Positions 1,258 through 64,000 of a DNA stretch of 64,000 bases are shown here, in pieces. The notes beneath the pieces are model-generated. The model saw only the letters and a list, made by a program, of their open reading frames with translations. It was not told where the DNA came from and ran no database searches. This stretch comes from an uncultured Gammaproteobacteria bacterium (GTDB lineage Bacteria; Patescibacteriota; Microgenomatia; Levybacterales; UBA12049), in assembly GCA_964474445.1 (NCBI GenBank), contig CAYYSJ010000007.1, forward strand, positions 3,112-67,111, given 5' to 3'. The translations under genes and the position numbers were made by a program. How positions within the stretch are numbered: position 1 is the first letter of the stretch; the number at the start of each line of letters is the position of its first letter.

Positions 1258-3072
1258 ATGTCAGCTTCAAACCCGTTACACCACCTTCCCGACCCATTTG
1301 ATGATATTAAAAAAGTGGATATGGGACATTGTTTTAGCGCTAGTAATAGCAATTTGTATGCAAGTGCAGAATTTGGGAGAGATGCAAGGCAACTTGCTGT
1401 TGATGCCCTTATTTTCGATCCCACTATTACCAAACGTGTTGTTATGTCATTGGTAAAACACCAGGCATGGAAACGCAATGATATCACAGAAGCACAACCG
1501 GGGAAATTTCATCATGAACATCGAGAGCTTTTTATTAATGGCCAAAAGATTCCTGAACATTCAGAAAAAATTCTCAGAGAATTATCTGCAAAATGGGGAG
1601 GAACTGATGAAAAAGTTACTTACTATGGAAGTTCTGATATTACTCCTGATGTAGTTAGCCTTATCGCAGAGCTTGCAAAGCAAGACCTTGCTATTTTAAA
1701 GGAAAAAGTTATCAATCACGACAGGAAGAAAAAAATTAGTATTAAAGATAGTGCTCGCCATGGGATTCAGTGGGTCATGGATAGGATTGTCTTTGGTCCA
1801 ACCGTTACGCCACATAATAATATTGTCCAAAAATTCTTGGAGAAAAACCATCTGACGCAATTTGTTCCGACATATCACAATTACGTTTTGCGAAACATTG
1901 ATTGGATGAATCAAAAAATCACCACTGTTGGACAACAGCTTCGACTGCCTCTCTCTCAAAAAAAGAAACGAGTCAAATTACTTGAATTCCAACGTATCAA
2001 TCAACAAGGTATAACGTATCAAGGATGGATGGACGGAGGAACTTCCCTTATCCACTCCTCAAAAGAGATGCAAGGAATTCTTGCAGACTACAGGCAACCG
2101 ATTGCAACCATTGAAATGCAAGGATCTGCAATTGATGCACTTGAAAAAGCTGCATTTCTTTTCCCTAAAAAGGGCAAACATTTTAGAAAATTGGCTGATG
2201 AAGTTCGTGCAAACGTTATCAAACACTTTTGGATGGAAGACAAACAGTTTTTTGCAATGGGAACTGACAGAGAAAACAAAGGAGCACTGAGAAAAATTGA
2301 CACACTCGGAGCAAATGTCGGCGAACTCCTTAACTCTACATTTTTTGATACGATGCTTTTGCATGAAAAACAAAAGTACATCTCAGCAATTTTAACAATG
2401 CTTTTTAGTGATGAATTTCTTACAGACGCAGGTCTTCGTACACGGGCTAAATCTTCTGCTCACCTCACAGACATGTCTGAGAATAAGAATCAACCAAATT
2501 CTCCTTTGGATTATTGGGATTATCAAGGAGCAGAAACATCCTGGATTGTTCAAACAGGAAGAATTGCTGAAGGTCTTCGCATGCAAGGGTTCTACAATTT
2601 GGCGGAGCAATTAGATAACAGAATAGTAAATACCGTCAATCTCTGCAATTTTAATTTGGAATATGTCTATGTTGGAGCAAGAGGACAGTTGGAAAATGTT
2701 GTTGCGTACAAGACAGTTTCAAAGCAAACAATGTATCCACGATCAAAAAATCTTGATGTTGTTACGATCTCTGCAACAAATGTTCCAGAAGCAACGCAAA
2801 CGTGGACTGCATCACGAGTTGCAACAATATTGCATAGGAAAAGCCATCCAGAACTTACTGGACAGACAGAAAAAGAATCTTGGCAGGATAAACTTGAGCA
2901 AACAATCCTTGCTGATTTGAAACAAAAAGGAGCATTTCTTCCGATTTTTGATGCAGAAAAAGTTTTGACACTTCGGGAAACTGCGCCATTATTCGTTGTT
3001 GATCAAGAGAAAGGCAGAAAATTGGAAGAAGACATAAAGGCACATTCTAAAAACTTTTACCTGAATTACTAA
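1258..3072 (+). CDS. Glycogen debranching enzyme-like glycoside hydrolase (amylo-alpha-1,6-glucosidase / GDE_C-type (alpha/alpha)6 barrel)
   Basis: 604-aa ORF. Shares blocks with the 16914..18599 paralog ('KLLEFQRINQQG', 'YPIATIEMQG..DAL', 'HFWMEDKQFFAMGTDREN', 'NSTFFD', 'FLTDAGLRTR', 'DYWDYQG'), the pattern of archaeal/bacterial-type GDE-like hydrolases. Confidence 0.6.
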   Translation: MSASNPLHHLPDPFDDIKKVDMGHCFSASNSNLYASAEFGRDARQLAVDALIFDPTITKRVVMSLVKHQAWKRNDITEAQPGKFHHEHRELFINGQKIPEHSEKILRELSAKWGGTDEKVTYYGSSDITPDVVSLIAELAKQDLAILKEKVINHDRKKKISIKDSARHGIQWVMDRIVFGPTVTPHNNIVQKFLEKNHLTQFVPTYHNYVLRNIDWMNQKITTVGQQLRLPLSQKKKRVKLLEFQRINQQGITYQGWMDGGTSLIHSSKEMQGILADYRQPIATIEMQGSAIDALEKAAFLFPKKGKHFRKLADEVRANVIKHFWMEDKQFFAMGTDRENKGALRKIDTLGANVGELLNSTFFDTMLLHEKQKYISAILTMLFSDEFLTDAGLRTRAKSSAHLTDMSENKNQPNSPLDYWDYQGAETSWIVQTGRIAEGLRMQGFYNLAEQLDNRIVNTVNLCNFNLEYVYVGARGQLENVVAYKTVSKQTMYPRSKNLDVVTISATNVPEATQTWTASRVATILHRKSHPELTGQTEKESWQDKLEQTILADLKQKGAFLPIFDAEKVLTLRETAPLFVVDQEKGRKLEEDIKAHSKNFYLNY

Positions 3073-3109: not shown

Positions 3110-5479
3110 TTATGCAGAGATAGGATGGCTCACGACTCGGCCTGCTGGTTCTTTATCTTCTACTTTTTGAGCTTTCAAAGGCTTCACTAGCGCAACCGGT
3201 AACACCTCATCCATATGTCCTACAAAGACAAACTTTAAGTCATTAATAACTTCCTTTGGTAACTCTTCCAAATCCTTCTCATTTTCCTTTGGCAAAATAA
3301 CAGTCTTGATACCTGCTCTATGCGCAGCGATCACTTTTTCCTTTACCCCACCAATTTCTAGTGCTCTTCCTCGAAGTGTTACTTCACCGGTCATTGCAAC
3401 TGTTCGTTTGACTGGAATTTTTGTCAGTGCTGAAATAATTGCTGTTGTAATAGCAAGCCCTGCAGATGGACCATCCTTTGGTACTGCTCCTTCTGGAACA
3501 TGGACATGAATATCTGTTTTCTGGAAGGTTTTATCTGGAATACCAAACAGATTTGCACGAGAGCGAATATATGAAAGCGCAGCTTGAGCTGATTCTTTCA
3601 TGACATCACCCAACTGACCAGTCAGAATAAGTCCACCTTTTCCTGGCATCAAAGCAACTTCGATAAAGAGGATGTCTCCACCTGCTTCTGTCCAGGCCAT
3701 ACCAGTTGACATACCAACTTCATCTTTCTTCTCAATAAGATTCTCACTGAAGACAATTGGACCTAAGTACTTCGTTACTGTTTTATCTGTAACAATTGTT
3801 TTCTCAGGGGTCCCTTCAGCAACTTCTTTTGCTACTTTTCGATAGATTGCTGCAAGCCTTCGTTCTAAGTTACGTACTCCAGCCTCTCTTGTATAATGCT
3901 GAATGACAAATTTCACCGCATCATCAGTAATCTCTATTTGGTTTTCTTTGAGTCCATTTGCCTCAACGAGTTTCTTGAATAAGAAGTTCTTTGCAATTTT
4001 GAATTTTTCATCTTGTGTGTATCCTGCAAAGTTAATGATTTCAAGTCTATCCCTCAAAGCTGGCGGAATAGTATCTAAAACATTTGCCGTGGTAATAAAC
4101 ATCACATCAGATAAGTTAAATGGAACTTCCAAATAATGATCCGAAAATCCATGATTTTGTTCCGGATCTAATGCTTCTAACAATGCTGCAGTTGGATCTC
4201 CGCGGAAATCTGCACCAACTTTATCAATTTCATCAAGCATGAAGACAGGGTTCTTAGTTCTAGCATCTTTAATGCCCTGAATAATTCGACCTGGCATTGC
4301 TCCAACATATGTCCGTCTGTGTCCTCGAATTTCTGCCTCGTCACGGATACCTCCAAGAGATACTTTCACAAACTTTCGACCTAATGCTTTTGCAATTGAT
4401 TTTCCAATAGATGTTTTCCCAACACCAGGAGGCCCTGCAAAACAAAGAATTGGTCCTTTCATCTTGCCAGATAATTTTCTCACTGCTAGGTACTCAACAA
4501 TTCGTTCTTTTGCTTTCTTCAGACCAAAGTGCTCTTCATCTAAAATTTTCTCAGCGAGTTTAATATTAACATTATCTTTACTCTCTTGACTCCATGGCAA
4601 GTCTACTAACCATTCAACATAATTTCTAATATACCCTGCTTCTGGATTGAATTGATTCATTTGCCCAAGCTTTTTCACTTCTTTCTTTGCTTTTTCCTCT
4701 ACTTCCTCAGGCATTCCTGCTTTTTTAATCTTATCCAGTAACTCTTTCACTTCACCTGCATCATCTGTCTCTTGTCCTAATTCTTTTTCAATTGTCTTGA
4801 GTCTCTCTCTGAGTATTGCTTGTCTTGCGCCTTTTTCAAATTGTTCTTGAGTCTTGGATGCAATTCTTCTTTCAAGCTCGAGGATTTTAATCTCTCTTGA
4901 AAGCAGATCAGCAATTTTTTCAAGTCTTTCCTTTACATTGGTCATTTCTAATATATGTTGTCGCTCTTGTGGTTTTAGATCCAGTGCAGAAGCAACTAAA
5001 TCAGCAAGTTCTGAAGGAGAATTATCAGACATAATATTCATAAAGACGAGAAAGTCTGAAGACTTTCCTAAATTCATCGCTCTACGAAATTCGTTTGTAA
5101 TATGATTGCATAATGCTCGTACTTCTGGAGTATCTTCAACAACATCAGGAAGCTCTACAACATGTGCAAGAAGATATGCATCATGTTCTTCATAAGAAAC
5201 AATTTTGATACGAGTAAGTCCTCTCACTTGCGCGTTAATTTCACCATTTGTACGAATCATTCGCTCAATTCGTGAGAGTGTTCCAATTTCAAAAAGATCT
5301 TCTGTTGAGGGATCATTAATTCGTGCGTTTTTTTGTAGTACAAAACAGACAATACGTTCATTTTGGAAAGAGGATTCAAGTGCTGCTAAACTCTTCTGCC
5401 TTCCGAAAGTGAGGACTGCATCGGTATTGGGGAATATAATACCATCTCTAATTGGAATTACGGGTACTAATTTGTCCAT
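3110..5479 (-). CDS. lon: ATP-dependent Lon protease (La)
   Basis: 789 aa. N-terminal LON substrate-binding domain, AAA+ Walker A 'GPPGVGKTS', Walker B 'FMLDEIDK', C-terminal protease motif 'PKDGPSAG' with catalytic Ser. Confidence 0.95.
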   Translation of the reverse strand: MDKLVPVIPIRDGIIFPNTDAVLTFGRQKSLAALESSFQNERIVCFVLQKNARINDPSTEDLFEIGTLSRIERMIRTNGEINAQVRGLTRIKIVSYEEHDAYLLAHVVELPDVVEDTPEVRALCNHITNEFRRAMNLGKSSDFLVFMNIMSDNSPSELADLVASALDLKPQERQHILEMTNVKERLEKIADLLSREIKILELERRIASKTQEQFEKGARQAILRERLKTIEKELGQETDDAGEVKELLDKIKKAGMPEEVEEKAKKEVKKLGQMNQFNPEAGYIRNYVEWLVDLPWSQESKDNVNIKLAEKILDEEHFGLKKAKERIVEYLAVRKLSGKMKGPILCFAGPPGVGKTSIGKSIAKALGRKFVKVSLGGIRDEAEIRGHRRTYVGAMPGRIIQGIKDARTKNPVFMLDEIDKVGADFRGDPTAALLEALDPEQNHGFSDHYLEVPFNLSDVMFITTANVLDTIPPALRDRLEIINFAGYTQDEKFKIAKNFLFKKLVEANGLKENQIEITDDAVKFVIQHYTREAGVRNLERRLAAIYRKVAKEVAEGTPEKTIVTDKTVTKYLGPIVFSENLIEKKDEVGMSTGMAWTEAGGDILFIEVALMPGKGGLILTGQLGDVMKESAQAALSYIRSRANLFGIPDKTFQKTDIHVHVPEGAVPKDGPSAGLAITTAIISALTKIPVKRTVAMTGEVTLRGRALEIGGVKEKVIAAHRAGIKTVILPKENEKDLEELPKEVINDLKFVFVGHMDEVLPVALVKPLKAQKVEDKEPAGRVVSHPISA

Positions 5480-5656
5480 AAATATTTACCTATTTAGCAC
5501 TCTATCAGACATGTTGCTAACTGTCAACCCCCAAAAATACTCTAATCCCTCCTTATCCTCGTAAGAAAATACTATAACTGTATAATACAACTGAACTTAT
5601 GCAAATACGCCAATTTTTTTTCATTGTTCACACTAATAACGAACCTCTTTCTCTGG

Positions 5657-5686
5657 TTGACAGCCTCAATCTGACAGACCTACAAT
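5657..5686 (+). promoter_or_regulatory. Putative sigma70 promoter for the MgtE_N/CBS-Nramp gene pair
   Basis: TTGACA (5657-5662), 18-nt spacer, TACAAT (5681-5686); AGGAAG RBS 5688-5693 ahead of ATG 5696. Confidence 0.4.
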
Positions 5687-5695
5687 TAGGAAGCC

Positions 5696-6877
5696 ATGAT
5701 CTATTTAAGCCAACTTCTTAACAAACCAATTTACCAAAATGGCAAGCCTTTTGGAAAAATTGTTGACCTTGCAATCTTTGAGAATAGGCCAAATCCTCCT
5801 GTTTCAAAAGTAGAAATTAAACACGGTACAGAAAAATTGACCGTCTCCCCCCAAGCACTTACGTTGATGAATAATCATATTTCTTTGCCTGCACAACATA
5901 TTCCTATGCTTCCCTATGATCATAAGGATTTCTATCTCGTTGAAGATTTACTCGATAAACAGGTTATTGATACGGATGGGAGAAGATTGGTTCGAGTTAA
6001 TGATGTAATCCTTGAAAAGAACGGAGAATTTAAGGTGGTCGGCATTGATATTGGTTTTGCAGGTGTACTGAGGCGTTTAGGGTTAGGTATGTTTGCACAT
6101 CAAACGACAGTACTTCCCTGGAATGTTATTGAAGCATTTGATTATCAAACAGGAGATGTCAGAATAAAAATAAAACAAAGCAGTCTGAATACCCTCCACC
6201 CTGCTGATCTTGCAAATATTCTTGAGGATGCAGGAACAAAAGAGCGGATAGGAATTGTTGAAGCACTAGATGCAAAGCAAGCGGCAAGAGCCCTGGAAGA
6301 AGCAGATGAGGAGACACAAGTCTCAATTCTTGAAAACCTGAAGCCAGAGACAATAAAAGATGTTGTCAATAAAATGCATATTGCAGAAATCGCAGATGTC
6401 TTCAAAGACCTGAATCCCTCGAAGGCAAAAGAAGTCCAAAACGCATTAGGTACTGAAAGAACCCAAAAAGTGACTAAATTGCTCTCGTTCTCAGATGATG
6501 TTGCGGGAGGAATGATGCACTTAGGTTTTTTCCAAGCAGAAAGTAGTAAGACAGTAAAAGAAGTTATTAAGGAAATGGAAAATCAAGCAAATGTTCCAGA
6601 AACGATTATTGTTACAAATGAAGGCGGAAAAATAGCAGGAGTTATTAACACGAAAGAACTTCTTATCGCAGACAAATTGTCACTACTGGAGGATAATATT
6701 TCTGATAAAAAATTTGTATTCCCGGATACTCCCTTAGACGATATTATTGAGCTTTTTGCACAATACAACCTCCGAGTTGTTCCTGTTGTTGATCAAGAGA
6801 AAAAACCTGTTGGTATTATCCTTATTGATGATATTCTTAAAATAGTTGAAGAGGAAAATAGAAATGAAGACCTTTAA
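5696..6877 (+). CDS. Cytosolic PRC-barrel + MgtE_N + CBS-pair protein (MgtE-type Mg2+ sensor module with no membrane domain)
   Basis: 393 aa. N-terminal PRC-barrel-like region. The central helical block 'LEDAGTKERIGIVEALDAKQAARALEEADEETQVSILENLKPETIKDVVNKMHIAEIADVFKDL' matches the MgtE N-domain pattern. A C-terminal tandem CBS pair follows. The protein ends with no TM helices. Its 3' end overlaps the start of the Nramp-like gene by 32 nt. Confidence 0.7.
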   Translation: MIYLSQLLNKPIYQNGKPFGKIVDLAIFENRPNPPVSKVEIKHGTEKLTVSPQALTLMNNHISLPAQHIPMLPYDHKDFYLVEDLLDKQVIDTDGRRLVRVNDVILEKNGEFKVVGIDIGFAGVLRRLGLGMFAHQTTVLPWNVIEAFDYQTGDVRIKIKQSSLNTLHPADLANILEDAGTKERIGIVEALDAKQAARALEEADEETQVSILENLKPETIKDVVNKMHIAEIADVFKDLNPSKAKEVQNALGTERTQKVTKLLSFSDDVAGGMMHLGFFQAESSKTVKEVIKEMENQANVPETIIVTNEGGKIAGVINTKELLIADKLSLLEDNISDKKFVFPDTPLDDIIELFAQYNLRVVPVVDQEKKPVGIILIDDILKIVEEENRNEDL

Positions 6878-8102
6878 GAACGTATTTATCCGAATTCTTC
6901 CTCTTCTTGCAATCATTGGGCCTGGAATTATTTCCGGATCTGTCGATAATGATGCAGGAGGGATTACAACCTATTCTCTTGCAGGGGCTTCTTTTGGCTA
7001 CACCCAATTATGGGTATTAACAATTACAACGTTTTGTCTGATTATCACTCAAGAAATTGGCGCACGAATGGGACTTGTCACAGGAAAAGGATTGTCTTCA
7101 TTAATCCGTGAAAAATTTGGTGTGCGGTGGACAACATTTATTATGGGAGTTCTTCTTGCTGCAAATATTGGGACAATTGCTGCAGAATTTGCTGGAATTG
7201 CTGCTGCCTTGGAAATATTCCATATCAGCAAATTAATATCTGTTCCTATTGCAGCTGTTATTATTTATGCTCTTATGTTGAAAGGTAATTTTAAAAGACT
7301 AGAGAGAGTTTTTCTTGTCGCTTCCGCATTTTATCTTGTTTATATTGTTTCTGCTGTTCTTGCCAAACCTGATTGGGGTCTTTCTTTTAAAAGCCTTGTT
7401 GTCCCAACAATACAATTAAATAAAGGATATTTCCTTACCATGATTGCTGTTATTGGAACAACGATCACACCATGGGGGCAATTCTTTATTCAGGACTATG
7501 TGGTAGATAAAAAACTGAGTAAAGATGATTTATCTATTGAGCGAGGAGATGTCATGGTTGGCTCAATACTCACCAACGTTATTTCTTACTTTATTATTAT
7601 TGCGTGTGCTGCAACAATTTTTAGTCACGGTTTGGCTATAAATGATGCAAAAGATGCGGCAATTGCTCTTCAACCACTTGCCGGACATCTGGCTAGTTTT
7701 CTTTTTGCTTTTGGACTTTTGAACGCTTCCATTTTCGGTGCTGCATTAGTGCCAATTTCAACGTCCTATGTTGTCAGTGAAGCTTTTGGATTTGAATCAG
7801 GGCTTAATTTTAGTTTTGAAGAAGCACCTCAATTCTATGGATTATTTGCATTTCTACTGATAATGGGAAGTCTACTCGTTATTCTTCCGTTTGTTCCCCT
7901 CTTAACAATTCTTTTTGTTTCACAGGCAATTAATGCAGTTCTTCTTCTCCCAATTCTTATTTTTGTATACATTCTCTCGAACGATAAAAAATTACTTGGA
8001 GTATATGCAAATAATAGGATTGTTAATATTATTGTTTTGATCACCTTTTTTGGAATTGCAATTGCTTCAATTATTTACTTTGCCACACAGTTTATTCATT
8101 AA
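6846..8102 (+). CDS. Nramp-family transporter, NRMT-like (non-canonical metal site)
   Basis: 418 aa, about 11 TM helices. TM1 reads 'GPGIISGSVDNDAGGITTYSLAGASFGY', aligning to Nramp 'GPGFL..IDPGN..AGA' with DPGN replaced by DNDAGG. TM6 reads 'GTTITPW' in place of canonical 'GAxxMPH'. Confidence 0.75.
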   Translation: MKRKIEMKTFKNVFIRILPLLAIIGPGIISGSVDNDAGGITTYSLAGASFGYTQLWVLTITTFCLIITQEIGARMGLVTGKGLSSLIREKFGVRWTTFIMGVLLAANIGTIAAEFAGIAAALEIFHISKLISVPIAAVIIYALMLKGNFKRLERVFLVASAFYLVYIVSAVLAKPDWGLSFKSLVVPTIQLNKGYFLTMIAVIGTTITPWGQFFIQDYVVDKKLSKDDLSIERGDVMVGSILTNVISYFIIIACAATIFSHGLAINDAKDAAIALQPLAGHLASFLFAFGLLNASIFGAALVPISTSYVVSEAFGFESGLNFSFEEAPQFYGLFAFLLIMGSLLVILPFVPLLTILFVSQAINAVLLLPILIFVYILSNDKKLLGVYANNRIVNIIVLITFFGIAIASIIYFATQFIH

Positions 8103-12227: not shown

Positions 12228-12380
12228 ATGCTTAAGTCATCTATTATTATCATGAGTATCCTTGTATTTGCGCTTCTTATTATGCAAGGAGTTCGTGCAC
12301 AATCGCCATCAACAACAAATAATCCAACACCGACAAGAATGGTACCAAGTGGTGCTCCTTCTACAGGATTTGGAGACTAA
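12228..12380 (+). CDS. Small secreted peptide (50 aa) with signal peptide; hypothetical
   Basis: Absent from the ORF track because it is under 60 aa. Strong SD 'GAGGAGGTG' lies 7 nt upstream of the ATG. Sequence MLKSSIIIMSILVFALLIMQGVRA|QSPSTTNNPTPTRMVPSGAPSTGFGD. Sits immediately upstream of the sortase gene. Confidence 0.35.
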   Translation: MLKSSIIIMSILVFALLIMQGVRAQSPSTTNNPTPTRMVPSGAPSTGFGD

Positions 12381-50247: not shown

Positions 50248-51930
50248 TTAATGTCCCGTTGCAAGTTGTACAACTTTGATAATCATTAGTAATGCAGCAA
50301 CAACTAAGTATCCTCGAAGCGTATACATACCGATTTTTCTTGTTAATGACCATTCAGGTTTTGGTAATGTCTCTAATGGTTGCATTCTCCAATTCATTTT
50401 TTCCTCAAGAGACATCAATTCTTTTTTCTCTGTCTTTTTCTTACTAAATAGATAGAATCCTCCTGTTATCAGAAGCCCGGCAATAAGAGCACTTCCGGTC
50501 CAAACAGTTACTTGAGTTCCATCAAGATTTGGGAAAAGCGTTGTCGCAGCAAGAATAAAGGAGAGCATAACTAACACTCCAATAATGATACCTGCAATTG
50601 CATTAAGCCATTTTGTATTTACCCAAGGGCCAAGCACATGTTTATCGTTGCACAAAAGGACAAGAAATACAGTGGCCGATGGAAGAAGAATGCCAGCTAA
50701 AGCTTGTACAGCAAGGTTAATAAGCCCAAGAGGAGCATGAGGAATAAGCACTATTGCTGCTGCAAGAACAACAAGGACTGAATAAGAAATGTAGAAGAAT
50801 TTTGCATCTTTAAATGATCTATGGAGTGAATGATGCATTCGAAATACATCTCCAAATGCATATGAAGTTGAAAGGGTAACTGCAGCAGCACCAATCACTG
50901 CAGCATCTATAAGAATTATTGCCCCCATAGCTCCTGCTTGATGTCCAAATGTTGTAGCAAGACCACTAATGACTCCTGTCATATCTGAAAACTGTCCTGT
51001 AAGTTTTGTTCCTGCAAATGCAAAAGCAGTTACGATGATCATGGCAGCAGCACCAAATTCGGTAACAAATGATCCAAAAATGGTATCCATTACTTCATAT
51101 TTAAGCCAGCGAGGAGTAATTCTCTTGTCAATAACGTTTGACTGTTGGAAAAACAATTGCCATGGAGCAACAGTAGTCCCAACAATACTCACAATAAGAA
51201 GGAGTACGGTGGAGTTAAGTCCTCCTGCTATTCCAGGAATAAACGTATCATGGAGAACTGGCATCCAGTGAGGGTGAACCATGAGAGCTAATGGATAAAC
51301 CAGAAATGAGAAGACAATAAAGCCGTACATAAATTGCTCCCAACGTTTGAAGCTTCCAGTAAGTGCAGTTGCAATAAGGATTGTGGCAAATAAGGGAACA
51401 GACAGGTATGGAGGAATTCCAAAGTAAAGTGCACCTTGAGAAATACCAATAAATTCAGTGACAATAGTAAGAAAGTTTAAAATAAATAAATCCCCTGCTG
51501 AGAAAAATCCCCAGAATTTTCCAAACCGTTCAATAATCATGCGAGCATGTCCGACACCTGTCACAGCACCAAGACGAGCAACCATTTCTTGATTCACAAT
51601 AAGAACAGGTATAAGAAGGAAGAGCGTCCACATAAGAGAAGTGCCGTAATTTTGTCCTGCTTGCATGTATGTAGCAACTCCTCCCGCATCGTTATCACCA
51701 ACCATAACAATGAGCCCTGGACCCATGATCACTAAAAACGCAAGAAGTTTTTTTAATAGTCCTTTATGCTGATATGGATGTTCATCTTTTCGGATAGTAC
51801 CCCATGCGCCATAGATATCACCCAAGTGGGCTGGATCTAACACAGCACTCCCCGCATGAGAGTCAACCTCATGTGGATGAGGTAAATATTTATAATAAAC
51901 GTTTTTGAAAAATTCTTTCATCACAAACAC
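50248..51930 (-). CDS. Nramp-family transporter, NRMT-like paralog 3 (extended C-terminus)
   Basis: 560 aa. TM1 'MGPGLIVMVGDNDAGGVATYMQAGQNYGTSLMW'. TM6 'GTTVAPW'. Extra C-terminal TM helices and a ~60-aa tail. Confidence 0.75.
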   Translation of the reverse strand: MFVMKEFFKNVYYKYLPHPHEVDSHAGSAVLDPAHLGDIYGAWGTIRKDEHPYQHKGLLKKLLAFLVIMGPGLIVMVGDNDAGGVATYMQAGQNYGTSLMWTLFLLIPVLIVNQEMVARLGAVTGVGHARMIIERFGKFWGFFSAGDLFILNFLTIVTEFIGISQGALYFGIPPYLSVPLFATILIATALTGSFKRWEQFMYGFIVFSFLVYPLALMVHPHWMPVLHDTFIPGIAGGLNSTVLLLIVSIVGTTVAPWQLFFQQSNVIDKRITPRWLKYEVMDTIFGSFVTEFGAAAMIIVTAFAFAGTKLTGQFSDMTGVISGLATTFGHQAGAMGAIILIDAAVIGAAAVTLSTSYAFGDVFRMHHSLHRSFKDAKFFYISYSVLVVLAAAIVLIPHAPLGLINLAVQALAGILLPSATVFLVLLCNDKHVLGPWVNTKWLNAIAGIIIGVLVMLSFILAATTLFPNLDGTQVTVWTGSALIAGLLITGGFYLFSKKKTEKKELMSLEEKMNWRMQPLETLPKPEWSLTRKIGMYTLRGYLVVAALLMIIKVVQLATGH

Positions 51931-52094
51931 CTCCTATGTAAAAGGTAATATTGGAAAGTTCGCCTGAAAGAAGAGGATTATCTAAGAGGAACCATACAAA
52001 AATAATCTACAATCTCTTATAAACTCTTTTTGTTTAGCGACGTCTTAACACCTCTTCTCGTTGAGCTTCGACTATTGCTGAAAGACGTATGCGT

Positions 52095-52268
52095 ACTACT
52101 CTATTCGTTCTAACCTAATCTAAATCAATGAAATTAAGCTATTGCAAGCTACTTTGGATTAATCCTTACTCCGGAAAAATCTGTCCTGACCTTGACCGTC
52201 TCTCGACGTGGGGGGTCAGCAGCTTGTATTCTTTCAGCAGTCTCACCTAACGAGGTGCAACTAACTAT
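52095..52268 (-). ncRNA. Candidate M-box (ykoK) Mg2+-sensing riboswitch in the leader of the Nramp-like operon
   Basis: Minus-strand leader reads ...CGTTAGGTGAGACTGCTGAAAGAATACAAGCTGCTGACCCCCCACGTCGAGAGACGGTCAAGGTCAGGACAG... This aligns with the Bacillus mgtE M-box core 'CGUUAGGUGAGGCUCCUGUAUGGAGAUACGCUGCUGCCCAAAAAUGUCCAAAGACG' as I recall it, with conserved GUUAGGUGAG, GCUGCUG.CCC, AGACG and CAGGACA boxes. About 330 nt of leader lie upstream of the Nramp ATG. Confidence 0.55.
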
Positions 52269-52366: not shown

Positions 52367-52780
52367 ATGTCAATATCTGAGCAACTGCTCATATATACAT
52401 ATATCACAATGGATCCAATTAACAAAGAACATATCCATAAAGGAGAAAAAGCAATACCACCAAAACCTCTTCTTGAGGTAGTAGTACAAGTATTTGAAGC
52501 ACTTGGTGATGAAACTCGAGCAAAGATTCTTTACGCAGTGAGGAAACAAGAAATGTCAGTTCGAGATTTAGCAATCATTATCGATATTTCTGAATCTGCA
52601 ATTTCCCACCAATTAAAATATTTAAAAACAAGACATTTAGTAAAATCACGAAGAGATGGAAATGTCATCTACTACAAAGTAAGTTTTAGACATTTATCAG
52701 CACTCCTTAAAGAAGCAGAGTATTATGCGGATCACCTGAAAAGTAAATTACCTGACCACCCCTATAGAGAAGATGAATAA
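52367..52780 (+). CDS. ArsR/SmtB-family metalloregulatory transcriptional repressor
   Basis: 137 aa. 'ALGDETRAKILYAV..EMSVRDLAIIIDISESAISHQLKYLKTRHLVKSRRDGNVIYY' winged-HTH of ArsR type. The start may be the internal 'MDPINK'. Confidence 0.75.
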   Translation: MSISEQLLIYTYITMDPINKEHIHKGEKAIPPKPLLEVVVQVFEALGDETRAKILYAVRKQEMSVRDLAIIIDISESAISHQLKYLKTRHLVKSRRDGNVIYYKVSFRHLSALLKEAEYYADHLKSKLPDHPYREDE

Positions 52781-52782
52781 CT

Positions 52783-53718
52783 ATGCATAAACAGCTGCCA
52801 CACAACCATATGAAAGGCCACTCTGAGGAACACACTCATGGAACGATTGATCCGTCAATCACAACAAGTGACAAAGGATTATGGGCACTGAAATGGTCTA
52901 TGGTAGGCTTTATTATTACCTCTGGTATTCAATTTCTTATTGTTTTATTCTCAGGGAGTGTTGCATTGCTCACTGATGCAATTCATAATTTTGGTGATGC
53001 TGGAACAGCTATTCCTTTATGGTTTGCATTCCAAGTATCCAAGCGTAAACCAAATCAGAAATTTGCCTATGGATTAGGACGAGCAGAAGACTTGGCAGGA
53101 CTTTTTATCCTCGTTGTTATTTTATTCACAACAATTATTGCAGGATATCAAGCAACATACCGGCTTATCCATCCCCAACATTTACAAAACTTGTGGATTG
53201 TATTATTCGCTGCTCTTATTGGTTTTGTTGGAAATGAGACTATTGGACTCCTTCGTATTAAGGTAGGTAAAGAAATCCATAGTGCAGCCTTGGTTGCCGA
53301 TGGACAACATGCTCGTATTGATGGACTGGCAAGCCTTTCAGTTATTATTGGTGTTATCGGCGCTTGGCTGGGATATACAATTGTTGACCCACTCGTTGGT
53401 ATCGGTATTATCCTCATTGTATTACATACCCTTTGGGAAGCTGGAAAAGAAATACTTGTGAGACTCCTGGATGGTGTTGATGAAGAAGTGATTCATCAAA
53501 TACAACATACAGCAGACCATATAGATGGAGTCGGAAAATTTACTGACATAAGAGCAAGGTGGAGTGGCCACTTTTTGTTTGTTGAATTGACAATTTTAGT
53601 ACAACATAACCTGACTGTTGAAAAGGGACACACAATTGCAAGCAATGTTAGACACGAACTTCTTCATCATATGCCTCACATTGCAGACGTTACTGTTCAT
53701 GTAGAGCCCGTGAAATAG
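52783..53718 (+). CDS. Cation diffusion facilitator (CDF) family divalent-metal efflux transporter (CzcD/ZitB-like)
   Basis: 311 aa. His-rich N-terminus 'HNHMKGHSEEHTHG'. TM2 'LLTDAIHNFGDAGTAI' and TM5 'HARIDGLASLSVIIG' metal-site motifs. C-terminal cytoplasmic domain. Confidence 0.85.
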   Translation: MHKQLPHNHMKGHSEEHTHGTIDPSITTSDKGLWALKWSMVGFIITSGIQFLIVLFSGSVALLTDAIHNFGDAGTAIPLWFAFQVSKRKPNQKFAYGLGRAEDLAGLFILVVILFTTIIAGYQATYRLIHPQHLQNLWIVLFAALIGFVGNETIGLLRIKVGKEIHSAALVADGQHARIDGLASLSVIIGVIGAWLGYTIVDPLVGIGIILIVLHTLWEAGKEILVRLLDGVDEEVIHQIQHTADHIDGVGKFTDIRARWSGHFLFVELTILVQHNLTVEKGHTIASNVRHELLHHMPHIADVTVHVEPVK

Positions 53719-57404: not shown

Positions 57405-57571
57405 AAATTTATTTTAGCAGCTGTTTTCCAAAATACAAGAGTCTTTGTCTGTACTTGCTGCAAAAAAGCATTTCTATCCTCCCCCTCATTATCTAGAAAA
57501 GTTCGAAAATAATAACATTACTTAGTTTGAATTTTACATAGAAGTCTTAACTATGTTATACAATATGAAAG

Positions 57572-58426: not shown

Positions 58427-58562
58427 ACCCATAAAAATATATTGACACAGGTTAGTAATCCTTCTGATGCCAATGCTCTTCTTGTCAAAGAGCGAGATTG
58501 GCAATATATGCATTTGCTTGAGTTAGGGGAAAAATTATAATGTAACGTGTATACTATACATA

Positions 58563-59417: not shown

Positions 59418-59552
59418 AGATATCTTAATGTGCTGGGGAACCAAAACGACTGCTTTGATCTGTAATGTAACAGGTCCAGAAACTCAGTCAGGGCATTAGA
59501 ACGATTCGCAATAAAAGGAATTAGGACCTGCTCTTGAGGTTATAATAAAGTT

Positions 59553-60179: not shown

Positions 60180-60395
60180 AAGCATTCATCAACCTAAACT
60201 AGAATTTCAAGCTAAAATTAGTATATCCGCACCCTTTGATCAAAGAGGATTGGTTTGGTGTTTCACACTTTACTGCATGGTTTTAGTAATGTTCAGGAGT
60301 GCATTTTTGCGATCCAAATGTTTTGAAGAAGAATGATGGGTTTATAAAACCTTTACAAACGAAATGGACACCCCGGTCAGTTAGGGGTACCCGTC

Positions 60396-60430
60396 TTGGC
60401 TGGCGGATATCAACGCTATTCGAACTTTTT
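60396..60430. repeat. Intergenic ~35-nt motif, copy 1 (TTGGCTGGCGGATATCAACGCTATTCGAACTTTTT)
   Basis: 30/35 identical to copy 4 and clearly related to copies 2 and 3; lies ~100 nt upstream of the ArsR-like gene 60537. Confidence 0.6.
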
Positions 60431-60536
60431 GGCAAACCTCACGAGAACAACTTTACATTCCTAACTATCTATAATTAACTAAACTTATTGACAGAAGTAA
60501 ATTATTCAAATATACTTAACTTATAAGTTAAGTATT

Positions 60537-60902
60537 ATGCCCAACTCCCATATACCACATGATTTAGATAAAGTTTTTGAATCTCTTGCCAACCAACACA
60601 GGAGAGAAATTGTTTACGTTTTAGGCTTACAACCATATTCAATAAGCCAGTTAGCTTCTATGCGAAACCTTTCCCTTCCTGCAATTCATAAGCATATAAA
60701 AATACTTGAAGACGCGGATATGATAGTCCGTAAGAAAATCGGAAAAAGTAATGTACTTACCCTCAACCGAGAATCATTACGAGAGCTTCAGGATTGGCTT
60801 ATGCAATATCATGCTTACTGGGGTAACAGCAAAGAGACATTAGAGAATTATGCTAAACATTTAGAGCAAGCAAAACGTCGAAAGGAGGTGAAGAAAAAAT
60901 GA
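60537..60902 (+). CDS. ArsR-like winged-helix transcriptional regulator
   Basis: 121 aa. 'HRREIVYVLGLQPYSISQLASMRNLSLPAIHKHIKILEDADMIVRKKIGKSNVLTL' HTH_20/ArsR-type wHTH. Overlaps the next gene by 4 nt. Confidence 0.65.
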   Translation: MPNSHIPHDLDKVFESLANQHRREIVYVLGLQPYSISQLASMRNLSLPAIHKHIKILEDADMIVRKKIGKSNVLTLNRESLRELQDWLMQYHAYWGNSKETLENYAKHLEQAKRRKEVKKK

Positions 60903-61228
60903 AAAAATTTGTACTCATCTTCTATGGCAAAGTTAGACCAGAAGATATAAGTAAAGAAGAAATGAAAAGTACAATGGACAAGTGGATGGCCTGGTTTGAC
61001 ACATTCAAAGATAATATGATCGACGGAGGTAATCCATTTGCTGCTGGCGCAAAGTCTGTGACAGCAAAAGGCGTTGAAACGATTCCAGCAGATATGTGGC
61101 CTGCTCAAGGTTACACTATTATTAATGCAAAAGACATGGATGAAGCGACAGAAATTGCTAAAGGGTGCCCTGCACTTGAAAATGATAATGAAGGAGCCGT
61201 ACGTGTCTATGAAGCACAGGTAATGTAA
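60899..61228 (+). CDS. YCII-related/DGPF-like small protein (putative)
   Basis: 109 aa. 'KKFVLIFYGK...STMDKWMAWFDTF' resembles the YciI-like family often paired with ArsR-type regulators. Assignment is tentative. Confidence 0.4.
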   Translation: MKKFVLIFYGKVRPEDISKEEMKSTMDKWMAWFDTFKDNMIDGGNPFAAGAKSVTAKGVETIPADMWPAQGYTIINAKDMDEATEIAKGCPALENDNEGAVRVYEAQVM

Positions 61229-61241
61229 ACAGTTTATTTAT

Positions 61242-61276
61242 GAAGAGGTATCCTATCTCGGGATACCTCTTCTTTG
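61242..61276 (+). terminator. Hairpin terminator after the YCII-like gene
   Basis: Perfect 12-bp stem GAAGAGGTATCC/GGATACCTCTTC with 7-nt loop, followed by TTTG. Confidence 0.5.
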
Positions 61277-61306
61277 TGAGCGAAAGGTTCGAATCCGAGT
61301 TTGTCT

Positions 61307-61342
61307 ATTTGCTGCGGATACTATAGCACATTAGAACTACTC
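61307..61342. repeat. Intergenic ~35-nt motif, copy 2 (ATTTGCTGCGGATACTATAGCACATTAGAACTACTC), preceded by AGGTTCGAATCC box at 61285-61296
   Basis: Shares TTGCTG(G)CGGATA...GC.(C/T)ATT.GAAC core with the other copies; ~60 nt upstream of the ADH gene. Confidence 0.55.
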
Positions 61343-61400
61343 TAACCTTACAAAACTTCATATCCATATAATTTTAACTTTGATATAATCAAAATATAGT

Positions 61401-62411
61401 ATGAAAATTAACACATATGCTGCATATGCCCCAAAAGAAGAATTAAAAAGTTTTTCCTATGAAAGAACTCCCAGAGAAAATGAAATAGTCGTGTCTATAA
61501 ACTCATGTAGTTTAACCAGAGGGGATATTAGGTTTATTGATAATTACTGGAATGATACTCAGTATCCCATGGTACCAGGTCTTGAGATAGTCGGAAGAGT
61601 TACTGAGATTGGTAAAGATGTGAAAGAAATTAAAATAGGAGACGTAGTTGGGATTGGTTACCAAATAGAATCATGTTTTACATGTGAATATTGTTTGGTT
61701 GGAAAAGAACAGTTTTGTCTCAAGCAAAAACTTATTCCTGTTCATGGGTATGGAGGATTGGCAGACACTATAATAGTTGATTATAGATTTGCTTTTAGGA
61801 TGCCAGAAAATTTACAATCTCCTGAGTCAACGCCACTTCTATGTGCTGGTCTCACACCGTATGCAGCAATTAAAAAATGCAATGTAAAATCTGGCATGAA
61901 TGTAGGTGTTATAGGAATTGGTAGTCTTGGGCACTTTGCAATTCAATTCCTAAGCAAAATGGGATGCAAGGTAACAGCCTTTTCTCACACAATGGATAAA
62001 TCAGAAGACCTTAAAAAATTAGGTGCGAGTAGTATTATTCTTTCAACTGATGAACACGCATTGCAAAAATTGGAAAGACAATATGATTTCATCATTTCAA
62101 CATCAGCTGGTAATTTATCCTGGGAAAAATTTATTAAGATACTCAAGCCAGAAGGTATTTTGTGCTTTGTAGGATTACCTCCAGAACCCATTTCTTTCAA
62201 AGCGGAGTTACTCGCTGACTTTGCACAAAAGAGTATCGTAGGTAATTACATAGGTAGCAGAGAAGACATGAAAGATATGCTTACCTTTGCTTCGAAACAT
62301 AGCATTAAATCCATGGCTGAAATATTCCCAATGGAAAAAGTTAATGATGCTATTGCAAAAATGAGAAAATATGAAATCCCATTTAGCTTAGTTCTCACAA
62401 GAGACTCCTAG
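61401..62411 (+). CDS. Zinc-dependent alcohol dehydrogenase (MDR superfamily, CAD-like)
   Basis: 336 aa. Catalytic-Zn ligand region 'GDIRFID...', structural-Zn motif 'CFTCEYC..GKEQFC', Rossmann 'GVIGIGSLGH'. Confidence 0.85.
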   Translation: MKINTYAAYAPKEELKSFSYERTPRENEIVVSINSCSLTRGDIRFIDNYWNDTQYPMVPGLEIVGRVTEIGKDVKEIKIGDVVGIGYQIESCFTCEYCLVGKEQFCLKQKLIPVHGYGGLADTIIVDYRFAFRMPENLQSPESTPLLCAGLTPYAAIKKCNVKSGMNVGVIGIGSLGHFAIQFLSKMGCKVTAFSHTMDKSEDLKKLGASSIILSTDEHALQKLERQYDFIISTSAGNLSWEKFIKILKPEGILCFVGLPPEPISFKAELLADFAQKSIVGNYIGSREDMKDMLTFASKHSIKSMAEIFPMEKVNDAIAKMRKYEIPFSLVLTRDS

Positions 62412-62438
62412 ATAGGTTCGAATCCACGAGGCTGAAGA

Positions 62439-62474
62439 TTTTGCTGGGGATAATGGAGTACAGTAGAACCACTC
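62439..62474. repeat. Intergenic ~35-nt motif, copy 3 (TTTTGCTGGGGATAATGGAGTACAGTAGAACCACTC), preceded by AGGTTCGAATCC box at 62414-62425
   Basis: Same core as the other copies; box 1 overlaps the ADH stop codon. Confidence 0.55.
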
Positions 62475-62537
62475 TTGCCTCCAATTCTAGTCAAACAAAT
62501 TAGTTCTCTGCGGAATTTTTCATGATATAATACTCTC

Positions 62538-62607
62538 GATGCGGTCGCCGAGTTGTCAGGCATCTGTCCGCAAGACAGAGGACACAGGTTCAGCGCCTGT
62601 CCGCATC
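62538..62607 (+). ncRNA. GC-rich tRNA-like/structured leader element (candidate cis-regulatory RNA)
   Basis: 70-nt GC-rich island in an AT-rich genome, directly after a TATAAT box (62524-62529). Outer 7-bp stem GATGCGG/CCGCATC. Internal hairpins CTGTC-CGCAA-GACAG and ACAGG-TTCAGCG-CCTGT (T-arm-like). Direct repeat CTGTCCGCA occurs twice. Confidence 0.4.
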
Positions 62608-62616
62608 TCAAGTTTT

Positions 62617-63594
62617 ATGACACCACAAGAATATATTCTTTCAACACTAGAAGCACTAAAAGCCCCTGTCCAAATAGAAGATATTGGCAATACTTCCTTT
62701 GAGGATGCAATTTATTCGAAAGTTATGTCGAAAAAATTTCGTAAACTCAAACCAGGCGAAGATGCAGTAAGACTTACCAAACAAGCAATCCAACGTCTCG
62801 TTAAAGACAATAAGCCAATCAGAATTTTTGAGATGTTTGGCGGTAACAAACTTTGGCGATTTGAAGAAGCACCTGAAATTGACTGGGCAGAACTTTTTAG
62901 CTTTACCTACTTTGCACAATGGGCAAGACTTATTGCAAGCGTGTATAAACCAGGAGTCATTTTTGAATATTTTTCTCAGGATATTTCTGTTGAAAGACTT
63001 AATAATATTCCACGAATTGAAACAGATAAATATAGCGAAACATTTCGCTCAATGCTTAAGTTTGTTAAACCATATCTACCAGAAAATGTACAATTTATTT
63101 ATACCCGTCATTATGATTTATTTAAAAACCCTAACGATTACTATAAAGAGATAGAGGAAGCTAAGCAAGAACTTCTTAAACAGAATAATGGCAAACTTCC
63201 AGAAATGACAGACGCTATGAAAGCTGCAACTGAATTAAACGTAAAATTAAAGCCTGGACAAAACAATGATCCACAATGGCGGGAAAAGGTCGAATTGGAA
63301 CATCAAGCAATCTTTATAACACCAACTTTAAAGAAAGTTTCTGATGATCCAGCGAAGATTTGGACATGCCCCACATATTATTCTGATTCTGTAGTAACAG
63401 GAAGCACCAAAAGATCTTATGCCAAATTTTGGGCAGGCATTGGTGCGTTACAAAAAGAAGGAAATAGTTTTGCAGAGTTAGTTTTAACTCCTAGACAGTT
63501 AGAATCTGCAGAATTTGATTGGGAAGAAGTTAGTATACCAGGACTTGAAGGTAAAAATTTTAAAAGAGTACGGATGTTAAAAAAGCCTCTATAA
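62617..63594 (+). CDS. Hypothetical protein (no recognised domain)
   Basis: Track ORF 62539..63594. I prefer the start at 'MTPQEYIL' (62617) because the first 26 codons coincide with the structured GC-rich leader. No motif recognised. Confidence 0.4.
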   Translation: MTPQEYILSTLEALKAPVQIEDIGNTSFEDAIYSKVMSKKFRKLKPGEDAVRLTKQAIQRLVKDNKPIRIFEMFGGNKLWRFEEAPEIDWAELFSFTYFAQWARLIASVYKPGVIFEYFSQDISVERLNNIPRIETDKYSETFRSMLKFVKPYLPENVQFIYTRHYDLFKNPNDYYKEIEEAKQELLKQNNGKLPEMTDAMKAATELNVKLKPGQNNDPQWREKVELEHQAIFITPTLKKVSDDPAKIWTCPTYYSDSVVTGSTKRSYAKFWAGIGALQKEGNSFAELVLTPRQLESAEFDWEEVSIPGLEGKNFKRVRMLKKPL

Positions 63595-63662
63595 ATTTAC
63601 CTCAGGTTCTAACCAGTCTATGAAAGGTACTTGAGATTAGGCTGTCTTATTAGACTAAATTC

Positions 63663-63697
63663 AATTGCTGGCGGACATAGATGCTATTCGAACTTTT
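63663..63697. repeat. Intergenic ~35-nt motif, copy 4 (ATTGCTGGCGGACATAGATGCTATTCGAACTTTTT)
   Basis: 30/35 identical to copy 1; lies in the convergent spacer between 62617..63594(+) and the partial HAD gene(-). Confidence 0.6.
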
Positions 63698-63738
63698 TAT
63701 ATAACTACTCAAGAGCAATTCTATATACCGAATTATGT

Positions 63739-64000
63739 TTAATTAATGTTTTTTAAATCTTCTTGTGTGCTAATAAAACCAGCAATTGGAGTGTCAGTAA
63801 ATTCATCTTTACTATTGAACCCATTTATTAAAACGAAACAACTCATATTTGCGTTGAGTGCCGACTGTACCCCAACCATTGTATCCTCAATAACAACACA
63901 TTCTGATGGTTCTACTTGTAGTTCTTCTGCAGATTTGAGGTATATCTCTGGGTCAGGTTTATGATGAGCTACATCTTCCTTGCAAATTATTGATTTGAAT
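63739..64000 (-). CDS. HAD-superfamily hydrolase (beta-phosphoglucomutase-like), C-terminal part; 5' end beyond window
   Basis: Minus-strand translation '...KEDVAHHKPDPEIYLKSAEELQVEPSECVVIEDTMVGVQSALNANMSCFVLINGF...' ends at TAA 63739-63741. The KPDPE and (I)EDT..G motifs are HAD motifs III/IV. Confidence 0.6.
   Translation of the reverse strand, partial: FKSIICKEDVAHHKPDPEIYLKSAEELQVEPSECVVIEDTMVGVQSALNANMSCFVLINGFNSKDEFTDTPIAGFISTQEDLKNIN

Follow-up and report, generated by a model that had tools for sequence, protein, structure and literature searches.

The window analysed here is a 64,000-nt stretch of contig CAYYSJ010000007.1 (positions 3,112 to 67,111, forward strand; assembly GCA_964474445.1), which was deposited as an uncultured Gammaproteobacteria bacterium and carries the GTDB lineage Patescibacteriota, Microgenomatia, Levybacterales, UBA12049. 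In its last 4 kb, four related short motifs (copies 1 to 4, or c1 to c4) alternate with coding modules of about 1 kb, and just past its end lies a tRNA-Gln(CTG) gene. The tRNA gene is seen in L001, a contig of the same organism that overlaps the window by 4046 nt with 0 mismatches and adds 8.4 kb. Outward from tRNA-Gln, the order is module A (HAD), c4, module B (DIT1-like), c3, module C (alcohol dehydrogenase, ADH), c2, module D (ArsR-YCII), c1 and the native trailer of the tRNA. A first-pass annotation, made from the letters of the window, had noticed the motifs and offered three explanations: operators of a local regulon, a small repeat family of the repetitive extragenic palindrome or miniature inverted-repeat transposable element kind (REP/MITE), or remnants of repeated tRNA-targeted integration. 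Could the motifs be the joints of a tandem array of gene cassettes that were inserted, one after another, at the 3' end of the tRNA?

When checked on the window sequence, all four copies were present at the coordinates reported for them, and the distance from GCTG to GAAC on the plus strand was exactly 27 nt in every one. The motifs are real and non-random. The description of them as a single four-member family of 35-nt units holds only for the common core; in reality, they form two pairs, c1/c4 and c2/c3, with units of ~70 nt in the former and ~60 nt, including a box, in the latter. Copies 1 and 4 make up an ungapped 80-nt repeat with 74% identity (60399-60478 vs 63667-63746), so that their similarity stands, while the 30/35 identity given for the shorter unit is corrected to 29/35 in the proper register (60396-60430 vs 63664-63698). 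Copies 2 and 3 have an exact AGGTTCGAATCC box in common, and their cores are identical at 21 of 27 positions by hand count. The identical box reported before these two copies was also found, as an exact 11-mer, GGTTCGAATCC, that occurs in the 64-kb window only at 61286 and 62415, compared with ~0.03 exact copies expected by chance from the window size. The AGGTTCTAACC "box" before copy 4, on the other hand, lacked statistical support. The sites do adjoin -10-like boxes, as had been noted, in that cassette promoters abut them and the c1/c4 block itself has a -35/-10-like pattern.

The wider motif search that had been proposed for the genome was run over a 72-kb extended sequence (the window plus the 8.4 kb from L001), and the matches were confined to the array beside tRNA-Gln. 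A profile of the four cores gave no further convincing copy in the window and one weak match past its end, at 64413-64438 of the extended sequence. We then used test profiles built from other genomes alone, namely a block profile that left out c1 and c4 and a junction profile taken from five other loci. In the 72 kb, the block profile matched only c4 (E = 5.6e-19) and c1 (E = 2.3e-17), and the tRNA/box junction profile matched only the tRNA junction (2.5e-8), c2 (2.1e-6) and c3 (5.4e-5).

The tRNA-Gln(CTG) gene lies on the minus strand at L001 4462-4533, which is 64416-64487 of the extended sequence (ARAGORN), 720 bp past copy 4 and just outside the window. Its 3' end, together with the same box in its flank, constitutes a fifth copy (extended 64384-64487) that the earlier reader could not see. 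On the plus strand, the tRNA region reads AGGTTCGAATCCGAGGTTGGTGTTTTTGCTGCGGGACTTGGATTCGAACC and carries the box and the TTGCTGCGG...TTCGAAC motif of copy 2; the motifs are thus reverse complements of the acceptor end/T-loop region of the tRNA plus its 3' flank. Read on the tRNA strand and anchored on CAGC, the five sites align. CAGC comprises the last acceptor-stem bases and the discriminator of tRNA-Gln and is kept at each junction, and each copy reads GTTC[G/T]A[A/C]T-N15-CAGC, which resembles a T-loop followed by an acceptor end. The distance from the T-loop motif to CAGC is 10 nt in the tRNA compared with 15 nt in all four copies (TCGAAC in c1 and c4, TAGAAC in c2 and c3). Neither ARAGORN nor the Rfam tRNA model gave a cloverleaf at the four copies, whose identity with tRNA-Gln is limited to CAGC. 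Repeated tRNA-targeted integration is the one of the three early explanations that we retain: the motifs copy the 3' end and flank of the adjacent tRNA-Gln, all in the same orientation, and the last of them is followed by the native trailer.

In what follows, P and P' denote the element-side arms of an attachment (att) site, and B' denotes the trailer-side arm of attB. The copy 1 block (60399..60468, minus strand), which was aligned with 32 metagenome copies, consists of a P-type half-site, GTTCGAATAGC-N8-CCGCCAGC (60399-60425), and a -35/-10-like segment. The ~70-nt block of copy 4 (63667..63737, minus strand) lies at the A/B junction and starts 2 nt past the HAD stop codon. Next to copy 1, at the distal end of the array and now ~4 kb from the tRNA, is the native tRNA-Gln trailer (60331..60398, minus strand), the B' arm of attB. 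A trailer profile built from loci L127, L151 and L109 only had a single match in the 72 kb, at 60331-60402(-) beside c1 (E = 7e-14); because it matches right after c1, we take c1 to be an attR-type junction (P + B') and the end of the array. The trailer is conserved over ~72 nt across contigs (L127 3904-3976, L151 3357-3429, L109 1995-2067) and holds a hairpin (ACCCC-N9-GGGGT) that is followed by TATTTNGTTTGTAAAGG.

Copies 2 and 3 read as internal junctions, each made of one cassette's P arm, CAGC and the next cassette's P' arm, because the junction profile matches only the tRNA junction and these two copies. Copy 2 (61283..61342, minus strand) combines a diverged P-type half-site (61311-61337), whose TAGAAC motif is spaced as in P, with the CAGC core and a P' arm that is short and holds the box GGATTCGAACCT (61286-61297 on the plus strand); the profile match spans 61283-61318. 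Copy 3 (62412..62474, minus strand) is built in the same way, with the box at 62414-62425, the core plus P half-site at 62443-62469 and the profile match at 62412-62450. A P arm of the c2/c3 type was searched for elsewhere and not found, and its profile matches only tRNA/box junctions. The GGATTCGAACC box, an inverted T-loop motif, is present in c2, in c3 and in the flank of the tRNA next to the window. As GGATTCGAACC(T), it lies 14-15 nt past the tRNA CAGC in that flank and in L103, L120, L143, L136 and L153; next come a -10 box of the TATAAT type, which reads TGnTATAAT in the window, and the start codon of the cargo. Furthermore, the arm types agree across junctions. Cassettes A and D resemble each other both in their P arms (in c4 and c1) and in their P' arms (in the tRNA flank and c2), in line with what a tandem-insertion model requires.

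Two further candidates were discarded. Supposed older remnants upstream of c1 (57437-57466, 58440-58530, 59427-59510 and 60240-60275) looked similar by eye and were rejected because no profile backs them and the native trailer puts the end of the array at c1. A "long P' arm" made of the distal side of c4 and AGGTTCTAACC was likewise unsupported by the profiles.

Measured between CAGC cores, cassettes A, B, C and D are 749, 1224, 1132 and 912 bp long, respectively. Cassette A carries a HAD-family hydrolase gene on the minus strand (63739..64000 in the window, continuing to 64374 in the extended sequence; gene call and Pfam), beyond which come a short P' arm with the box and then tRNA-Gln(CTG). 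The cargo of cassette C is a zinc-type ADH (61401..62411, plus strand; Pfam ADH_N and ADH_zinc_N). Cassette D (60488..61228, plus strand) has a TTGACA-17-TATACT promoter, an ArsR-family gene (60537-60902) and a YCII-like gene (60899-61228), with Pfam matches to HTH_5 and YCII. In cassette B (62538..63594, plus strand), a tRNA-like cloverleaf leader (62538-62609) precedes a 325-aa gene (62617-63594) whose match to DIT1/PvcA is weak (Pfam E = 3.8e-4, below the family cut-off). ARAGORN calls the leader (plus strand), which stands between a TGATATAAT promoter and the ATG (62617) of the DIT1/PvcA-like gene, a 72-nt "tRNA-Cys(GCA)". Its fold is a clean four-way cloverleaf (-29.3 kcal/mol, z -2.2); the conserved positions D-loop GG, U33 and T-loop A58 are missing, and the Rfam tRNA model gives no match even at E<=10. 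Rather than a working tRNA, the segment may be a tRNA-like leader with, for example, a role in processing or regulation.

The c1/c4 block is widespread. A scan of metagenomes with the half-site pattern GTTCGAATAGC-N8-CCGCCAGC yielded 56 loci, about 45 of them low-GC, and the low-GC loci have ~70 nt in common that end exactly at CAGC and give way to unrelated sequence. A tRNA-Gln can be seen in 18 loci, and all 18 have it co-oriented with the block and 0.35-10 kb upstream of it. Five loci (L108, L110, L114, L127 and L146) contain two blocks 0.85-2.3 kb apart, and the trailer follows the tRNA-Gln directly on its 3' side in L127 and the block in L109 and L151. The cargo beside the block varies and includes a racemase, GT2, a MazF-like toxin, a CAAX protease, GIY-YIG, RibD_C, Nudix, MOSC, a Na/Ca exchanger and IMPase; HAD as a conserved neighbour of the block was rejected, as the cargo differs in other loci (tblastn). 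On the tRNA strand, the block has a TATAAT-like box; on the opposite strand, it has TTGGCA, a spacer of variable sequence and fixed length (17-18 nt) and TATATT. This promoter-like pattern explains the -10-like boxes of the first-pass annotation. In L104 and L109, an operon begins beside the block and reads away from the core. In L127, genes for a TOTE conflict-system-type AEP primase-helicase and a Fic/DOC protein (4711-7944, minus strand) separate the tRNA-Gln from the two blocks; defence-type cargo thus also lands at the tRNA-Gln hotspot.

Two of these loci hold complete elements between the tRNA-Gln and a block at the far end, of 7.4 kb in L104 and 10.1 kb in L109. Each encodes a Resolvase-domain protein (590 and 573 aa, respectively) in antisense to the tRNA, with the 3' end of the gene overlapping the tRNA, as well as a DnaG-like primase near the recombinase and other genes. 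Identity between the two recombinases is 61%, and both show weak, distant matches to the SPbeta integrase, TnpX, XisF and CcrA/B/C. As it ends these elements, we interpret the block as the element-side arm (P) of the distal junction of elements that carry a large serine recombinase (LSR) and target tRNA-Gln. In L090 and L089, a 564-aa LSR gene runs into the 3' end of tRNA-Gln, and the same flank is present in L093; the L090 enzyme has no BLAST relation to those of L104 and L109. An LSR gene thus adjoins a junction in L104, L109 and L090/L089, and none does so in the window or the 8.4 kb beyond it. Of the two tRNA-Gln(CTG) genes in L109, the first (1853-1924, minus strand) heads the LSR element and the second (12263-12334, minus strand) follows ~140 nt past the element's distal block and trailer.

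Do cassettes that lack a recombinase move on their own boundaries? Loci L120 and L143 have 815 bp in common with one mismatch (99.9% identity). This stretch runs from a short, box-bearing P' arm through an Asp/Glu racemase gene to the block and contains no recombinase gene. The identity starts at the CAGC/AAAAG boundary and stops right after CCGCCAGC. On the left is tRNA-Gln(CTG) in one contig and tRNA-Gln(TTG) in the other, and the right flanks are unrelated. Recombinase-less cassettes thus have exact att-type bounds, lie at different targets and share their block with the LSR elements of L104 and L109. This comparison indicates that they are discrete mobile units bounded by CAGC.

The geometry of the sites resembles that of serine-integrase attachment sites. 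Counted outward from CAGC, a TCGAACC-type motif occupies positions 13-19 in the tRNA and CC(C/T)AAC occupies positions 13-19 in B', whereas most P' arms and the P arms of all four copies have the motif at 18-25 and the P' arm of c3 has it at 22-28. The reconstructed attP is GTTCGAAT-N15-CAGC-N16-ATTCGAAC (~54 bp) and the reconstructed attB is GGTTCGAATCCC-N7-CAGC-N6-GGGCACCCCAACC (~42 bp); each is a short site with imperfect inverted half-sites around a small central sequence. In serine integrases, the motif bound by the zinc-ribbon domain is shifted 5 bp inward in attB relative to attP, and the minimal attB is ~10 bp shorter than attP (Rutherford et al., PMC3783163). The tRNA and B' arms show the same 5-bp offset relative to P and most P' arms. 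On the basis of these comparisons, it is very likely that the four motifs are hybrid att junctions of tandem cassettes inserted at the 3' end of tRNA-Gln(CTG).

How would such an array form? A cassette would circularise to give an attP of ~54 bp (P-CAGC-P'), and the LSR of a helper element, acting in trans, would insert it into the ~42-bp attB formed by the tRNA T-arm, CAGC and B', with the crossover at a dinucleotide within CAGC. For cassette A, the predicted circle junction is ...GTTCGAATAGCATCTATGTCCGCCAGC joined to AAAAACACCAACCTCGGATTCGAACC..., and the predicted empty site is tRNA-Gln ...TCCCGCAGC joined to CAAGACGGGTACCCC.... Repeated insertion next to the tRNA would displace older junctions outward, and the AT-rich part of the c1/c4 block would serve as a promoter reading away from the core.

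More broadly, we raise the possibility, tentatively and at somewhat less than even chances, that Patescibacteria of the Microgenomates/Levybacteria type have a cassette system that is integron-like in outcome and run by serine recombinases. Such a system would use single-gene cassettes of ~0.4-1.2 kb, each with its own promoter and a complete ~54-bp attP that mimics the tRNA T-arm. The LSR of 7-10 kb helpers would capture and release them in trans, and the arrays would stack at the 3' end of tRNA-Gln. It would also require an LSR that recombines attP with an occupied, attL-type site.

Several observations weigh against the reading of the motifs as att junctions. The chief one concerns array growth: insertion at an occupied site would need attP x attL, whereas canonical serine integrases recombine attP x attB only (PMC3783163). 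Neither tblastn with both LSR types nor Pfam on 29 open reading frames (ORFs) revealed a recombinase gene in the window or the additional 8.4 kb; scans of viral contigs, made with three DNA patterns and with the LSR of L104, yielded no copy and nothing of use; and no free circular form of a cassette was found. Outside the ~27-nt core, c2 and c3 do not match the c1/c4 block profile, and the distal side of c4 does not match the P' profiles. Conservation of the block could in part reflect a promoter instead of recombinase binding. Lastly, all of the evidence is comparative and comes from metagenome assemblies.

Other explanations have to be weighed against these att junctions. That the motifs are operators of a local regulon, bound by the ArsR-like protein of cassette D, gained some appeal from the position of copy 1 about 70-140 nt upstream of the ArsR gene, from the location of three copies upstream of plus-strand genes and from the ArsR-family helix-turn-helix domain that we confirmed in the 60537-60902 protein. 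Yet none of the 56 block loci, about 45 of them low-GC, encodes an ArsR homologue (tblastn), the cargo beside the block is unrelated between contigs, and the position of the block is set relative to tRNA-Gln and not to a regulator gene. Copy 4 has no plus-strand gene downstream, and the motif lacks a dyad of the usual operator size. In addition, the near-consensus promoter of ArsR, TTGACA-17-TATACT (60488-60516), has its -10 (TATACT) overlapped by a perfect 24-bp palindrome, ATACTTAACTTATAAGTTAAGTAT (60512-60535), that stops 1 nt short of the start codon. The palindrome is a stronger operator candidate for ArsR than c1 to c4, whose role as operators we consider extremely improbable. A REP/MITE family fares no better, since the 72 kb holds no copies elsewhere, the copies are fixed in strand relative to the tRNA and they fold no better than shuffled sequence. 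All of them lie on one strand, and in other loci the block is downstream of tRNA-Gln wherever the tRNA is in view. Could the block instead accompany tRNA-Gln as a small RNA gene or a promoter cassette, its likeness to the tRNA end being incidental? The TATAAT-like box on the tRNA strand, the TTGGCA/17-18 nt/TATATT pattern on the other strand and the operons that start beside the block in L104 and L109, reading away from the core, would fit this idea. The covariation analysis that had been proposed, done with RNAalifold on 34 block copies, nevertheless showed neither consensus structure nor covariation on either strand, folding energies equalled those of shuffled sequences, and Rfam gave no match at the four copies, whether at the gathering threshold or at E<=10. 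Conservation also stops exactly at CAGC, the same 4 nt at which cassette identity ends at the tRNA, and the promoter-like part does not include the 27 nt of highest conservation. A small RNA or promoter cassette is therefore very unlikely as an alternative; the promoter role is compatible with a P arm that acts as an att half-site, so that it complements the att-junction explanation and does not compete with it.

Two other readings concern how the modules came to be where they are. The ~1-kb single-gene modules, their diverse accessory cargo and the ~60-70-nt site after each of them recall integrons, in which IntI acts on attC sites that fold as single-stranded hairpins and the cassettes are promoterless. 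However, DNA folds of the four copies on both strands are no better than shuffles (z -0.9 to +0.7), the 34 block copies have no consensus structure, and the order of the boxes is GTT...AAC and not RYYYAAC...GTTRRRY. No integrase of any kind was found among the ORFs tested in the 72 kb, full elements pair the block with a serine recombinase, a tRNA gene and not an attI beside intI heads the array, and the cassettes have their own promoters. We therefore regard attC sites as barely tenable. Alternatively, the motifs might be decayed relics of a few large tRNA-integrated islands, with ~1-kb modules that were never independently mobile, as the absence of a recombinase near the array, the degeneracy of c2 and c3 and the existence of 7.5-10 kb full elements with the same distal block would allow. 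Against this stands the 99.9%-identical, 815-bp single-gene module, which has exact CAGC bounds beside two different tRNA-Gln genes. The modules also have conserved P' arms of their own, with the inverted T-loop box, and not the 3' remnants of LSR genes; similar short modules and two-block arrays recur in many contigs; and random deletion would not preserve a P-CAGC-P' junction between each pair of modules. Relics of large islands are thus unlikely. A sigma-54 promoter, a dif/Xer-like site and a permuted or split tRNA were also considered and dropped, as the spacing or pairing did not fit the sequence.

Homologues of the diacylglycerol kinase (DAGK) of the window bear the name Levybacteria in public records. 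In relatives whose DAGK is 76-84% identical to that of the window, the gene order RecJ-AspRS-peptidase S11-x-GltX-DAGK-tRNA-Gln is kept, and the sequence past tRNA-Gln is different in every one of them. Several contigs break right there: L092, L093, L097 and L099 end within or just past tRNA-Gln, as expected if the site is variable or repeated within populations. GTDB relatives retrieved through GltX were too distant (at most 57% identity), and L008 keeps the GltX-DAGK-tRNA-Gln order and has no remnants. In L098 (DAGK 84% identical), a CTCCCCAGCAAAAC remnant is found at 4100-4150, ~95 nt downstream of the tRNA-Gln's own CTCGGCAGCAAGAC end, and may be a scar left by an insert that was very short or was deleted.

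Away from the array, the window contains an M-box (magnesium) riboswitch at 52045-52261 on the minus strand (117 bits, far above the Rfam gathering threshold), upstream of a 560-aa minus-strand ORF (50248-51930). It has ArsR-like and cation-efflux genes nearby (52367-53718), with two Nramp genes plus an MgtE-N/CBS gene at a greater distance. With the M-box and these genes, the window is rich in metal-ion homeostasis functions.

For annotation, the 4-kb stretch at the end of the window can be described as a tandem array of acquired cassettes with limits defined to single-base precision. In many genomes of ultra-small Patescibacteria, the tRNA-Gln 3' end appears to serve as the landing pad of single-gene, LSR-linked cassettes. 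If the cassettes are moved in trans, they would represent a second, integron-independent route to cassette arrays and would provide natural attP/attB pairs with a tRNA T-arm as the recognition motif. Such pairs would be of interest for the mechanism of serine integrases, given the conflict between arrays and the attP x attB rule, and for integrase-based genome engineering. We searched the literature for single-gene cassettes at tRNA-Gln that are tied to LSRs and found no description of them. Direct repeats of the 3' end of a target gene that bound integrated elements are of a well-known kind; what is new here is the use of a tRNA T-arm by LSRs, attP-bearing single-gene cassettes without a recombinase, and their stacking across many Patescibacteria.

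How does this array compare with known systems? The staphylococcal cassette chromosome (SCC), including SCCmec, is inserted at orfX (rlmH) by the LSRs CcrAB or CcrC, which use a fixed site at the 3' end of this conserved gene, and composite SCC islands contain tandem elements that are separated by short direct repeats, some of them without a recombinase of their own. The tRNA-Gln arrays share with SCC an LSR, a target at the 3' end of a conserved gene, a tandem arrangement and recombinase-less members. The L104 and L109 recombinases weakly match CcrA/B/C models; since the scores are far below the Ccr family cut-offs, they are not members of these families. On the other hand, SCC units are 10-60 kb long and sit at rlmH, whereas the units described here are single-gene cassettes of ~0.4-1.2 kb at tRNA-Gln in Patescibacteria hosts, and their sites have a clear 5-bp attP/attB offset on a T-loop mimic. 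Cis-mobilizable elements (CIMEs) lack a recombinase, have att sites related to those of a self-mobile element and occur in tandem with direct repeats of the 3' end of the target. As in CIMEs and other tandem accretion of islands, our arrays contain recombinase-less units bounded by att-type repeats at the 3' end of a tRNA gene. Unlike the described CIME cases, which involve tyrosine integrases and much larger elements, these are single-gene units associated with an LSR.

Known examples of serine integrases mostly target protein-coding genes. The sites reconstructed here differ from those of phage serine integrases in that the attB half-site is a tRNA T-arm and in that cassettes have an attP but no integrase. 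They are like the att sites of A118/LI, Bxb1, phiC31 and SPbeta in their size (~40-55 bp) and in the imperfect dyad around a central crossover. The outer motif that is 5 bp closer in attB and the attB that is ~10 bp shorter (PMC3783163) are further points of likeness, as is the integrase gene that adjoins attL. Canonical serine integrases do not recombine attP with attL, whereas arrays exist here. In outcome, the tRNA-Gln arrays resemble those of integrons, with single-gene cassettes of ~1 kb, diverse cargo, an end site of ~60-70 nt and one fixed entry locus. Unlike integrons, they have no IntI, attC hairpin or R boxes; instead, cassettes bring promoters of their own, entry is at a tRNA gene and the linked enzyme is a serine recombinase.

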